NCBI GenBank assembly: GCA_030704665.1
Contig: JAUYID010000009.1
Coordinates: 160,454 to 224,453 of the forward strand
Length of the DNA stretch: 64,000 nucleotides
From: a bacterium
Lineage (GTDB): Bacteria; Patescibacteriota; Microgenomatia; Woykebacterales; RBG-16-39-9b
Reading direction: 5' to 3'
Part shown: positions 4,193-9,066 of the stretch, one piece after another
Layout of the letters: the number at the start of each line of letters is the position of its first letter
Numbering within the stretch: the stretch's first letter is position 1
Translations under genes and position numbers: made by a program
Notes under the pieces: generated by a model
What the model saw: only the letters and a program-made list of their open reading frames with translations
The model's database searches: none
What the model was told of the DNA's origin: nothing

Positions 4193-4206
4193 CACTTTAC
4201 GAAAGA

Positions 4207-4232
4207 ACCCACCGCAAGGTGGGTTTTTTCTT
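4207..4232 (+). terminator. Rho-independent terminator (acccaccgcaaggtgggttttttc) ending the rRNA operon
   Basis: 6-bp GC stem with gcaa loop and T6 tract. Near-identical copies at 5240 and 6362. Confidence 0.75.
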
Positions 4233-4254
4233 TGAAAAGGGTTAAACTTTATTT

Positions 4255-5184
4255 ATGGACCCTGAAACCGGTGAAGTTCCCAAACAAGCAGCTAGCTTTA
4301 ATGCGGCGGCGGCAAAGGCAAAGTTCGAAGCGGATTTAAATAAGGAACAAACGAACCACCCGGCCGAAGAACTATCCAAAAAGACGGAAGCGAAAGAAAG
4401 CGAGCCACAGGATTTAGAGGATCAATTTTTGTATCACGGTACGAATGCTGCGTTTGAAGACGAATTGCACTCTGGTGCAAGCGACCACAATGTTGGCGGT
4501 AGCGCGGTTTATCTAACCCCGAGTCCGGAGCAGGCACATCATTATGCCCATTTTGGCGGCGGTCTTCACAATGAAAATAAAAATGAGCAACATTACAACA
4601 TCCACAGATACAGACTTAAAAGAGGAACAAGGATTCTTGATTTAGATGAGCCGTTGCCCCCAGAGGAAACGGAGCAAATAATATTGAAGAAATACGCTTC
4701 TCCAGCTTTAGCTAGTGAAGAAGCAGCAAGGTATAAGCGACATTATGAAGGGCGTCTCCCTCAGCCCGCAGAGGAGTTCTTAACTGGTCTTATGGATCTT
4801 AACAACGGTGACGACCGTCAACTGTTAGAGCAGATGGCTTACAAGGGAATCAAGAGAGCCCATCTTAAAATGAACGGACAGGTTGCTTTGGAAGTAGCAA
4901 TTTGGGATCCGAGCGTCTTGGTTCCTGCTATCGGAGGCAAAGCAGAACCAAGAACTGACGGTAGGCTAACTCAAGAAGCGAGCGACTATTTGAAGGGTCA
5001 TGAAAAAGCTAAAAGAACTTTTCATGGTCGTACCTATAGTGATAGTGATTTTTATGAAGATTTGCCAGTATTAAAAAGAATGGCTTGGGAAAGCGGGATT
5101 TCTTTAACCGGTGAAGAGACCGGTAGGGAGATAATGGAAACTTTGAAGGCTAGGAATGATGCTGACAAACAGAAGGATGTCTAG
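4255..5184 (+). CDS. Toxin-like protein with an H-Y-E class (diphtheria toxin/exotoxin A/PARP-like) ADP-ribosyltransferase core. Has a conserved 24-aa N-terminal leader shared with the 6413 gene.
   Basis: Motifs FLYHGT (His), then 26 aa later SAVYLTPSPEQAHHYA. This is the G-x-Y-(L/S)-T ... Y pair spaced exactly 11 residues, as in DT GFYSTDNKYDAAGYS and ExoA GFYIAGDPALAYGYA. Candidate catalytic Glu in LPPEETEQIIL (compare ExoA PEEEGGRLETILG). N-terminus MDPETGEVPKQAASFNAAAAKAKF is paralogous to MDSETGGIPKEAIDFDAAKAQANF at 6413. Confidence 0.5.
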   Translation: MDPETGEVPKQAASFNAAAAKAKFEADLNKEQTNHPAEELSKKTEAKESEPQDLEDQFLYHGTNAAFEDELHSGASDHNVGGSAVYLTPSPEQAHHYAHFGGGLHNENKNEQHYNIHRYRLKRGTRILDLDEPLPPEETEQIILKKYASPALASEEAARYKRHYEGRLPQPAEEFLTGLMDLNNGDDRQLLEQMAYKGIKRAHLKMNGQVALEVAIWDPSVLVPAIGGKAEPRTDGRLTQEASDYLKGHEKAKRTFHGRTYSDSDFYEDLPVLKRMAWESGISLTGEETGREIMETLKARNDADKQKDV

Positions 5185-5239
5185 ACGTTTTTGGGATTGA
5201 TTTGCTTAGATTCTGCGCCCCTAATCGGGGCTAGAAATT

Positions 5240-5265
5240 ACCCACCGCAAGGTGGGTTTTTTCTT
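5240..5265 (+). terminator. Second copy of the cccaccgcaaggtggg-T7 terminator module
   Basis: Identical stem-loop and T tract to 4207-4232. Confidence 0.65.
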
Positions 5266-6284: not shown

Positions 6285-6361
6285 GGAGGGATTGGACCCG
6301 CTTTGAGTTTTGACTCGGGCGGGTCCTTCCTAGACTGTCTAAGACTAATATTAAATTGTTC

Positions 6362-6386
6362 GACCCACGGGAGTGGGTTTTTTCTT
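6362..6386 (+). terminator. Third, diverged copy of the terminator module (acccacgggagtgggttttttc)
   Basis: Stem-loop plus T6. Followed by the same RBS/leader arrangement as at 4230. Confidence 0.55.
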
Positions 6387-6412
6387 TGCTCTGAAAGAGG
6401 TAAACTTTATTT

Positions 6413-8359
6413 ATGGACTCAGAGACTGGTGGAATTCCCAAAGAAGCAATTGATTTTGATGCCGCTAAGGCTCAAGCCAATTTCCTTGCCAGAGGAGAAA
6501 CAAACTCAATACAACCCGGATCGTGGGCCTTTCGTCGGAAAGAAGAAAAGGAAGAGAGAGAACGAGTGGAGGGGAGACGACCTCTTGCCGAAAATTTGGT
6601 CGAAAAGTATTTCCCCGAAAGCTCGACCCCCGAGAAAGAAAAATACAACCTTAGGAATTTGGTTAGCACTTTAGCCTTTCACGAAATTCCCGAAGATCAA
6701 CTTGAAGATTTTTTAACTATTCTGTTTGATGGAGCCAAGCAACTTGAAATTCCAGGCAAATCACTTCTTGATACTACTGCTCAGCTGGCTACCATTCCTG
6801 AATCAGTTGATAAGGCTAGAATCTATGCAGATTTTGCGAGGACGTGGAGGGAAAAGTTCCTCCAAGAAGGAGACGACACTCAAAAGTACAATCGAAGAGC
6901 TGCGTTTTTGGAGTTGACGCGCGATTTATCAGGAAGGAATAGAAGTCCTAGACCACCGGAGATTTCGGCTCAGTCTGCGCAACAAATTTTTGATAATGCA
7001 GTTGAGCTGTACAAGGAAGTCTACTCTTTGCCCGAGCAAACCATGGGTTCCCGGGAGCTTGTTAGTAGATCTATGAATGCTGCAAAAGAAACCAATGATC
7101 CAGAGCAAATTTTGTTTGCCGCCCAAGTTTTGAAGGACTCGCAGGGTATTGAGAATAAAGAAATTCGCGATAGCTACCTGGCAAATGTTGGTAGGTACGC
7201 AAGGCAACACCCTTTGAGCGTATCTAAGCTAAAAGGTATTGAAGAGAAACTTTTACCGGCTATGCTTAATAACGACCCACAGGTAGGAGTACTTTTAAGG
7301 GGCGGAAATATTTGGGGTATGGAAAGAGGTGATTTTGGGGTTGGAGACCTTTTGGTCCATTGCTACGCTTCCGAGATAAGTCCCGCCAATCTGAACGAGT
7401 TAATGCTAACAGCTCGACAGGTACCTGCAACAACTGTTTCACGGTTAGAGCAGAATCGAAAAGATGCCTTGATCATGGCAGGACCCTTTGGAGCCTTGAG
7501 AGATTTTATTCACGATCAGAGGCCAGGAGTTCATGAGGTTTTGGCATCTATGGTTGAGTATTATGATACTGGAAAAGCGGAGAATCTTCAGAAGTTAATC
7601 GGACAGACAGAGGGTTATTTAGCTGATCCAAGGAGACAAGACGCAATTTTGGATAGGTCTCGTTATGATCAGCTCGCTACTGAGGCTTCGCGTAATGACG
7701 ACGCGGAGCCAATACCGGTGATCGACTATCTTCGTAGACTTGAGAAGAACACTCGTCCGGTTGATGAGACACCACCGGCAACTGCGGATCAAGAGCTAAA
7801 CCAAAAACTAAAAAACGTTTTTGAGACTAAAGGCACAGAAAAAGGTAGGGAAGGCTTAGGTGAGGTGATGGAGAATATTAATCAGAAACTTTTAAGTCAG
7901 ATGCAGAACCATGAGATTGGAATAGATCCAAGTATGGTTGAGGCAATTTCTTGGGCAGAGCAGCAGGGTTTTCAGGTTCTACAAAAACTAAACTATGAAG
8001 GCCAACTTGGAGCCTACAGGCAAGAATGGTTCCATTCTCTACTTAGGTTTCAAGAACTTACTTCTTCGGCTAGGGATTTTGATGAAGTAGAGTTTAATAG
8101 TTTCATTGAAAGAGTGAAAAACGCACCAACTGAGCAAGAGGCTTATCGAATGATTTCGCAAAGGACTTTATTAAACATAGGTGGGTTGGCAGATAAGTAC
8201 AAACAACAAGGTAGAGAAAGTTGGTCGGGAGCACTTTGGTCAGGTAATATTAATCATGAACTCACAACTTTGGTTGATTTGCGACCAGCAAGTACTGCTT
8301 TGGGGCGTAGAGATAGGGAAGAAAAGTTAAATCCTGAAAAACGTTTGCCTGGGGACTAA
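6413..8359 (+). CDS. 648-aa helical protein of unknown function with the same N-terminal leader as the ART toxin. Candidate polymorphic effector.
   Basis: First 24 aa and about 40 nt of upstream DNA are paralogous to the 4255 gene. The remainder has no motif I recognise. Convergent 4-bp stop overlap with the minus-strand gene at 8356. Confidence 0.45.
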   Translation: MDSETGGIPKEAIDFDAAKAQANFLARGETNSIQPGSWAFRRKEEKEERERVEGRRPLAENLVEKYFPESSTPEKEKYNLRNLVSTLAFHEIPEDQLEDFLTILFDGAKQLEIPGKSLLDTTAQLATIPESVDKARIYADFARTWREKFLQEGDDTQKYNRRAAFLELTRDLSGRNRSPRPPEISAQSAQQIFDNAVELYKEVYSLPEQTMGSRELVSRSMNAAKETNDPEQILFAAQVLKDSQGIENKEIRDSYLANVGRYARQHPLSVSKLKGIEEKLLPAMLNNDPQVGVLLRGGNIWGMERGDFGVGDLLVHCYASEISPANLNELMLTARQVPATTVSRLEQNRKDALIMAGPFGALRDFIHDQRPGVHEVLASMVEYYDTGKAENLQKLIGQTEGYLADPRRQDAILDRSRYDQLATEASRNDDAEPIPVIDYLRRLEKNTRPVDETPPATADQELNQKLKNVFETKGTEKGREGLGEVMENINQKLLSQMQNHEIGIDPSMVEAISWAEQQGFQVLQKLNYEGQLGAYRQEWFHSLLRFQELTSSARDFDEVEFNSFIERVKNAPTEQEAYRMISQRTLLNIGGLADKYKQQGRESWSGALWSGNINHELTTLVDLRPASTALGRRDREEKLNPEKRLPGD

Positions 8360-9066
8360 GCTGCTTTTTCGGCCAGTTTGGAGGTGGTTTCGTAGGCAGC
8401 TTTGAGGACTTCTTCGATTCTTTCTTCGCGAAGAACGAATTTTTTCATTTCCGCGATTTCGGCAGTAGTTTTGGTGGCTTGATTCCAGGGGCTCACGTCA
8501 GCAAGGGAATCAGGATCATTATCACCAACCAAATCAGCCAAAGATTTAAGCTCCGGTTTTTCGTATTTGTAGCTGATCGTTCCGATTGAAGTTTCGAAGC
8601 TTTCCCCAAAGGTTTTTTTGTCTTCGGCATGAAGATATTTGTAGAGTCTTGAGGCGGCCTCCCCTTTGACAGAGATCAAACTGTTTCCAGGAACCAAACC
8701 AACCAAACCAGCTTCTTCAACTGCTTTGATTTGTTGCTCGTGAGATTCTTTAAGAAATTCAGGTGTGTCAATGGGAGGTTCCTTCAAAAAAATGGCGTTG
8801 CTAGAACCATCTTTAGTTGGGATACTTCCGGTGAATTGGCCTTGGTAAATTTTGTCTAGTTTGGCAAGTTCTTCAGCTAATTTTTTCCCGTAGTCGCCAG
8901 AACTGTCACTACTAGGTACTGGGTTGGGGGTCTCTGGTTGAGGGGGGTTTGCAGCTACCGCTGTCTCGGTGGGTGGGTTTTGATTCTCTGCCTCTTTTTG
9001 ATCAGTTAAAAAAGCTGGTTTGGGAAAAACCGGTGTTGGTTGGTCTTGGTTTTGAGCAGTATCCAT
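8356..9066 (-). CDS. Hypothetical protein (236 aa) with a Pro/Thr/Gln-rich N-terminus
   Basis: Long ORF on the same strand as folC, consistent with an operon. No recognised motif. Confidence 0.4.
   Translation of the reverse strand: MDTAQNQDQPTPVFPKPAFLTDQKEAENQNPPTETAVAANPPQPETPNPVPSSDSSGDYGKKLAEELAKLDKIYQGQFTGSIPTKDGSSNAIFLKEPPIDTPEFLKESHEQQIKAVEEAGLVGLVPGNSLISVKGEAASRLYKYLHAEDKKTFGESFETSIGTISYKYEKPELKSLADLVGDNDPDSLADVSPWNQATKTTAEIAEMKKFVLREERIEEVLKAAYETTSKLAEKAA

Follow-up and report, generated by a model that had tools for sequence, protein, structure and literature searches.

Why should two unrelated genes, lying close together behind a ribosomal RNA (rRNA) operon, begin with the same stretch of DNA? 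The question is raised by a patescibacterial genome of the order Woykebacterales (assembly GCA_030704665.1, contig JAUYID010000009.1), in which a repeated block of about 130 bases, made up of a hairpin, a ribosome-binding site and the first 24 codons, stands on two genes that we call A and B. A first-pass annotation had taken the locus for a cassette array of toxin-like genes with a common delivery leader. The DNA searched here was a 64-kb window (the whole stretch analysed, within a 938-kb source contig), and all counts of the leader for the source genome cover this window only. With a confidence slightly short of even, we read the block as an old, selectively maintained 5′ expression-and-tag module carried by two unrelated genes, and not as part of a toxin-cassette system.

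A repeated 5′ module opens two unrelated genes

On the forward strand the order of elements is the 5S rRNA gene, hairpin T1, the module with gene A (4255-5184, 309 amino acids (aa)), hairpin T2, a FabD-like gene, hairpin T3 and the module with gene B (6413-8359, 648 aa). A repeat finder aligned 91 nucleotides (nt) at 74% identity between 4236-4326 and 6394-6484, and the block around TAAACTTTATTTATGGAC occurs exactly 2 times in the window against 0 expected. The untranslated part of the first copy (4235-4254, + strand) reads AAAAGGGT, which is Shine-Dalgarno-like, followed by TAAACTTTATTT; that of the second (6389-6412, +) reads CTCTGAAAGAGG, again followed by TAAACTTTATTT. T1 and T3, but not T2, have an ATG within 20-24 nt, an interval that includes AAAGGG or AAAGAGG and the identical TAAACTTTATTT. 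The translated part comprises the first 24 codons of gene A (4255-4326, +; MDPETGEVPKQAASFNAAAAKAKF) and of gene B (6413-6484, +; MDSETGGIPKEAIDFDAAKAQANF).

The two leader peptides are identical at 15 of 26 positions in a BLASTP alignment of the gene A and gene B proteins (E = 8e-6). This alignment covers residues 1-26 only, and past residue 26 the proteins are without similarity. The same gene order was recovered in a separate Logan assembly (SRR13727534, L036); as this assembly is independent, the arrangement is not an artefact of one assembler. The repeat is therefore real and well above chance, and the common module of terminator, ribosome-binding site and leader, as well as the lack of relationship between the two payloads behind it, stand as first described.

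No third copy of the leader was found in the window by six-frame regular-expression, hidden Markov model (HMM) or nhmmer searches, and none of the fetched homologue loci contained the leader or hairpin module. The leader is also absent from the N-termini of the 26 + 29 relatives of gene B described below and of the gene A relatives P0002, P0030 and P0031. In the relatives of both payloads the N-termini are different and longer, and the similarity of genes A and B to these relatives begins only at about residues 32-45. A degenerate DNA pattern for M-D-x-E-T-G-x-x-P-K-x-A gave 0 matches in the GTDB representative genomes, a collection that does not hold the source genome, so that this result is weak evidence. 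The JGI metagenomes and IMG/VR, which likewise lack the source genome, returned one match each to the leader DNA pattern; the former lies antisense to a histidine kinase, the latter contains an in-frame stop, and both were dismissed as chance. All 32 of 32 matches of the 17-mer TAAACTTTATTTATGGA in IMG/VR were chance AT-rich sequences without the leader. A 42-aa leader alignment run against an index of 5.8 billion proteins gave no candidate, and was uninformative because it also missed the two source proteins. The lack of further copies in related genomes, as represented by the fetched loci, the GTDB representatives, the JGI metagenomes and IMG/VR, speaks against the cassette claim.

Neither leader has the positive n-region and the hydrophobic h-region of 7-15 residues of a Sec, Tat or lipoprotein signal; judged from the sequence, both are acidic and lack a hydrophobic stretch. 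No N-terminal domain was recognised on the leader in Pfam, NCBIfam or PADLOC. In being short, disordered, non-hydrophobic and common to unrelated proteins, it resembles the N-terminal cargo-loading and secretion signals of about 20-50 aa used by type III secretion and extracellular contractile injection systems; unlike these, it has no significant sequence match, and no such machinery was found among the window ORFs (open reading frames) scanned. Residues 8-17 of the leader (4276-4305), VPKQAASFNA, also resemble VPNQAISFNA, residues 7-16 of a phage baseplate protein (the gp33/gp34 helical bundle of Pseudomonas-phage type, PDB 8env_G and 9b45_A), at a non-significant E of 1.6, which is chance level; we note it as a lead and nothing more.

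The module is old and appears to be constrained

The 24 leader codons of the two copies differ by 9 synonymous differences at 15.3 sites and by 13 non-synonymous differences at 56.7 sites (proportions pS = 0.59 and pN = 0.23). The ratio of non-synonymous to synonymous divergence (dN/dS) is about 0.24 (Fisher p = 0.010), and synonymous sites are near saturation. Taken together, near-saturated synonymous sites and a low dN/dS indicate that the leader copies are old and not recent, and suggest purifying selection on the peptide. The native-like codon usage of genes A and B also argues against a recent local duplication, an explanation that is thus contradicted as regards age; the copies are still two, and both are local.

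The non-coding part, which runs from the hairpin as far as the ATG, has changed less. It shows 5 substitutions at 46 aligned sites plus two indels, compared with 9 of 15 at synonymous sites (p = 0.0003), and two of its blocks, of 16 and 18 nt, do not differ at all between the copies. Either constraint or homogenising gene conversion would account for the few changes in the hairpin and initiation region.

Three hairpins and a possible read-through

The window opens inside the rRNA operon, with tRNA-Ile, tRNA-Ala, the 23S rRNA gene (999-3916; Rfam RF02541, 2571 bits) and, as the last gene of the operon, the 5S rRNA gene (4081-4197, +; Rfam RF00001, 72.6 bits). Hairpin T1 (4201-4234, +) starts four bases past the 5S gene and has the structure GAAAGAACCCACC-GCAA-GGTGGGTTTTTTC, then TTTG. 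Its RNA fold has an energy of -25.5 kcal/mol (z = -5.0), and it resembles an intrinsic terminator closing the rRNA operon. T2 (5234-5267, +) is identical to T1 at 32 of 34 positions, 28 of them consecutive, and has no module after it; the two form 34-bp direct repeats that bracket gene A. T3 (6362-6388, +) is a variant, GACCCAC-GGGA-GTGGGTT followed by TTTTCTTTG, which shares its 3′ 16 bases, GTGGGTTTTTTCTTTG, with T1 and T2 and has a stem one pair shorter and the loop GGGA instead of GCAA. The description of three near-identical terminators is accordingly apt for T1 and T2, but not for T3.

Shuffled sequences would give 0.04 occurrences of the 17-mer hairpin core in 64 kb; the window has 3. 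A GC-rich stem-loop directly before a U-run, the signature of intrinsic terminators, was reported by the terminator scan for T2 and T3, and T1 has the same 28 nt as T2. In common with intrinsic (Rho-independent) terminators that allow partial read-through, the hairpins stand right behind a gene and combine a GC-rich stem (6-7 pairs) and a GNRA-type tetraloop with a run of 6 T; T1 also has an A-tract upstream. Unlike the usual leaky terminators, they have the next gene's ribosome-binding site within about 10 nt, and one hairpin sequence recurs, with three occurrences inside 2.2 kb and none in the remainder of the window. With only 3 copies in the window, all at this locus, a repetitive extragenic palindromic (REP) element was rejected.

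An integron cassette array was also considered and rejected, there being no attC site and no recombinase or integrase domain among the scanned open reading frames (ORFs) of the window. The locus does share with integron cassettes a series of short ORF units in the same orientation, without an obvious promoter and each bounded by a repeated palindromic element. The hairpin, however, is an 18-nt stem-loop with a T-run, whereas attC sites are 57-141 nt long with R″/L″/L′/R′ boxes; neither integrase nor attI is present in the window, and one unit, the FabD-like gene, seems to have a promoter of its own.

For both genes the T-run and the start codon are separated by only 20-24 nt, in which the scan detected no promoter-like site on the + strand, and we therefore infer that both rely on read-through of the hairpins. 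Gene A would be expressed by read-through of a leaky T1 from the rRNA operon, itself transcribed very strongly, and gene B by read-through of T3 from the transcript of the FabD-like gene.

Gene A probably encodes a divergent ADP-ribosyltransferase-fold protein

Residues 59-122 of gene A gave sub-threshold Pfam matches to DUF3990 (PF13151; E = 9e-4, 19.4 bits, gathering threshold 32.2) and to ART-PolyVal (PF18760; E = 0.056, 14.6 bits, gathering threshold 31.2). A phmmer search of 1.84 billion representative proteins returned seven matches, one of which, P0033 (E = 8.5e-4), passes the ART-PolyVal cut-off with 46.5 bits; a relative, P0031, aligns to profile positions 9-135 of the 140 of ART-PolyVal. 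In hhalign, a profile of the four closest relatives of gene A matched P0033 with a probability of 94.7% over the H-G-T ... Y-L-T-P segment. Homology to the ADP-ribosyltransferase (ART) clan was in this way reached through intermediate sequences and profiles, and a PDB profile search listed PARP catalytic domains throughout its top matches (E 0.3-1.5). The ART-like character ascribed to this payload at first sight was thereby borne out.

All six aligned sequences have H61 (in LYHGT) and Y86 (in VYLTP); at the position of E213 (in LEVAIWD), the four closest also have E and the two distant ones N or Q. These H-Y-E residues stand in the right order for the ART triad and are candidate catalytic residues. 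Gene A is thus probably a divergent ART-fold protein of the ART-PolyVal/DUF3990 type, and most likely, from these alignments, an NAD-dependent ADP-ribosyltransferase. With members of those families it shares the LYHGT ... VYLTP ... EVAIWD pattern. It differs from ART-PolyVal, a domain of large polyvalent proteins of phages and conjugative elements, in being a stand-alone protein of 309 aa and in having a C-terminal extension of about 90 aa. The AlphaFold2 (AF2) model, made from a 2-sequence alignment, has a mean predicted local distance difference test score (pLDDT) of 50.6, with the N-terminal half of the domain below 50, and was too poor either to confirm the ART fold or to serve in a fold search.

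The sole close relative of gene A, P0002, shares 69% identity with it and opens with a different N-terminal stretch, about 109 aa long. Its gene lies in an island (L001:2-3753) in which a Fic-domain gene (HPFVDGNGR) stands upstream, its end joined to the P0002 start by an ATGA overlap, and an RHH/HigB-like pair and then a bAvd/23S-rRNA-IVP-like gene follow downstream. PHROGs gave one weak match to gene A, of unknown function, and a phage tblastn search with gene A gave no result.

Gene B belongs to a conserved patescibacterial family

The family to which gene B belongs is all-alpha, uncharacterised and distributed across Patescibacteria. The protein index yielded 26 relatives and the GTDB species 29 loci, mostly from Paceibacterota, Ryanbacteria, Uhrbacteria, Microgenomates and Saccharibacteria. 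These relatives share a well-conserved C-terminal region of about 370 aa with the motifs GGNIWGM, RLEQNRKDAL, IHDQRP and GALWSGN, and their N-termini differ in length and sequence. The invariant polar residues N299, E346, N348, R349, H367 and D368 suggest an active site. The AF2 model is all-alpha with a mean pLDDT of 86; residues 1-36, which include the leader region, fall below 50 and are predicted to be disordered.

Gene B matched nothing in Pfam, NCBIfam, PADLOC, PHROGs or a PDB sequence profile search, and no relative of known function turned up for the family by sequence or by fold; PADLOC gave no match for any of the five locus proteins. No viral loci were found for gene B. Across the family's loci there is no conserved or recurrent neighbour family, and none of these loci lies beside a relative of gene A or of the FabD-like gene. 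In an Omnitrophota metagenome-assembled genome (JAUYDB010000302.1; L035:25-6345), the gene B domain forms the C-terminal end of an ORF that exceeds 2100 aa, runs off the end of the contig and has no recognised Pfam domain.

A short motif, P-x-G-W-[GEQ]-x-[VI]-[DEN], recurs in the variable, disordered N-termini of many gene B homologues. Examples are PSGWGKVD, PQGWGKIEVE and YGWETVDAG, and the motif occurs in P0004, P0012-like proteins, P0015, P0022, P0027, L012, L015 and L019. Gene B of the window has the 24-aa leader in place of this motif region.

The middle gene and the surroundings

The gene between A and B (5334-6284, +; the longest ORF starts at 5265) is a divergent, stand-alone FabD/MdcH-like acyltransferase without the leader, so that the supposed cassette array holds for the two leader genes but is broken by a leaderless one. 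It passes the cut-off of Pfam Acyl_transf_1 (43.9 bits against 32.7) but stays far below those of the FabD equivalog TIGR00128 (89.5 against 260.9) and of its best NCBIfam match, MdcH (101 against 297.9), and its active-site motif is GASLG instead of GHSLG. A TATAAT -10 box (5279-5284, +), with TG directly before it, lies right after T2. This box, read from the sequence, has no -35 box and was not flagged by the promoter scan; it is likely to be the promoter of the FabD-like gene. The GC content at third codon positions (GC3) of this gene is 0.60, compared with 0.36-0.49, and in most cases close to 0.42, in the other genes of the window except the ORF at 18332-19711; it is an outlier in codon usage as well. 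The middle gene is thus probably a horizontal acquisition inserted later between genes A and B. A GC-rich inverted repeat without a T-run, GGACCCGC...GCGGGTCC (6294-6326, +; read from the sequence), marks the 3′ end of the high-GC insert.

The ORF at 18332-19711 (459 aa; GC 0.60, GC3 0.69; no Pfam match) is the strongest compositional outlier of the window and probably another foreign gene. Gene B is followed by two convergent ORFs on the - strand, one of 236 aa (8356-9066), which overlaps the gene B stop codon by 4 nt, and one of 145 aa (9176-9613); neither has a match in Pfam, NCBIfam, PADLOC or PHROGs. Further along, an adjacent pair of tRNA-Ala genes with anticodons CGC and GGC lies at 26032-26198 (-), the third tRNA-Ala (TGC) being that of the rRNA spacer, and two giant ORFs of 2370 aa (28674-35786, -) and 1645 aa (48867-53804, -) are present.

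What is the module?

In the reading that we prefer, the module would consist of an intrinsic-terminator-like hairpin with its U-run, a Shine-Dalgarno and AU-rich initiation region of 20-24 nt and 24 codons for an acidic, non-hydrophobic peptide that is predicted to be disordered. In this lineage it would have reached, by copying or recombination, the 5′ ends of two resident accessory genes that are unrelated to each other, and would there have replaced the longer disordered N-termini that both families carry elsewhere. The leader tag may then serve as a common short recognition motif for a partner, for localisation or for export. Several points weigh against this reading. There are two copies only, and the selection statistics rest on 24 codons; the conserved non-coding part could be explained by local gene conversion and not by selection. 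Read-through is deduced from a missing promoter consensus, and patescibacterial promoters may differ from the sigma-70 consensus. The leader count, moreover, covers about 7% of the source genome, and a larger leader family would favour an effector system.

Such a system, in which the leader is the short delivery or recombination module and genes A (an ART) and B are swappable payloads of an unrecognised patescibacterial export route, strikes us as unlikely. Like the polymorphic toxins (Rhs, CdiA, LXG/WXG, MafB), the locus combines one N-terminal segment, a conserved peptide under apparent purifying selection, with unrelated C-termini, one of them ADP-ribosyltransferase-like. The 34-bp direct repeats around gene A, the island of Fic, ART-like, RHH/HigB and bAvd genes that holds its closest relative and the position of the conserved gene B domain, which is C-terminal, is preceded by N-termini that vary strongly and in one case lies in an ORF longer than 2100 aa, also fit. 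The trafficking domains shared by polymorphic toxins, however, measure from 100 to several thousand aa, whereas the shared part is here 24-26 aa long, lacks a hydrophobic core and matches none of the known trafficking domains; it has two members only, with no others in any collection searched. Neither gene is followed by an immunity-like gene, gene A being succeeded by T2 and the FabD-like gene and gene B by the convergent 236-aa ORF. No secretion apparatus or recombinase was found among the 20 large window ORFs scanned with Pfam (14.6-60.3 kb, a set without the two giant ORFs and several others), the scans giving housekeeping, envelope and sensor genes. The homologues of both payloads show the reverse of a swappable payload behind a conserved N-terminus, namely conserved payloads with varied and unrelated N-termini, and gene B is not a variable payload but a conserved stand-alone family without partner genes. 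As a whole, the toxin-cassette interpretation is partly supported; the available data do not support an array of toxin cassettes that share a delivery leader.

The same facts can be read with no function at all for the peptide, if segmental duplication or illegitimate recombination fused one 5′ fragment to two genes. Two copies, both local, would be expected of such a neutral relic; the leader lies in predicted disordered regions, in which sequence is tolerated, and the homologues manage without it. Yet 15 of the first 26 residues have been kept despite near-saturated synonymous sites (dN/dS 0.24, p = 0.01), and the 16- and 18-nt non-coding blocks are perfectly identical despite synonymous divergence, and we regard this explanation, too, as improbable. 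Fainter still is the case for a cis-regulatory RNA leader, an attenuator or translational switch formed by hairpin, U-run, Shine-Dalgarno sequence and early codons, with the peptide similarity as a by-product. The U-run could, for example, pair with AAAGAGG and mask the Shine-Dalgarno sequence; the minimum-free-energy fold of copy 2 does pair UUCUUUG with AAAGAGG, and the non-coding part is more conserved than synonymous sites. That fold, however, is no better than those of shuffled sequences (z = -1.1), and the spacing of copy 1, read from its sequence, forbids the same pairing. A permissive Rfam scan gave nothing near the gathering thresholds, its sole low-E match being to sroH (23 bits against 80), which covers the hairpin only (4206-4227). 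The concentration of leader differences at synonymous positions, moreover, points to constraint at the protein level, and we regard an RNA switch as very unlikely.

Implications for Patescibacteria

As the evidence stands, the locus shows that unrelated accessory genes in a reduced genome can share both expression signals and a short N-terminal tag. It also brings to light a divergent ART-like family with a handful of members in 1.84 billion representative sequences, and a Patescibacteria-wide conserved family, that of gene B, with a confident all-alpha model and no relative of known function.

How Patescibacteria act on their hosts is largely unknown. To our knowledge no effector-targeting signal has been described for them, and a targeted literature search found none. 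It is conceivable, if distinctly doubtful, that the leader of 24 residues acts as a tag, peculiar to this lineage, by which an episymbiotic Patescibacterium targets or exports its host-directed effectors, and that it is placed on a portable cassette whose expression is tied to read-through of the rRNA operon. Its known carriers would then be an ADP-ribosyltransferase and a member of a 'dark' patescibacterial family, and the rest of the genome and sister strains would hold more leader-tagged payloads. With two copies, the leader is a lead and not a discovery; should it prove to be a recognition signal, it would provide a sequence handle for the discovery of effectors in Patescibacteria.

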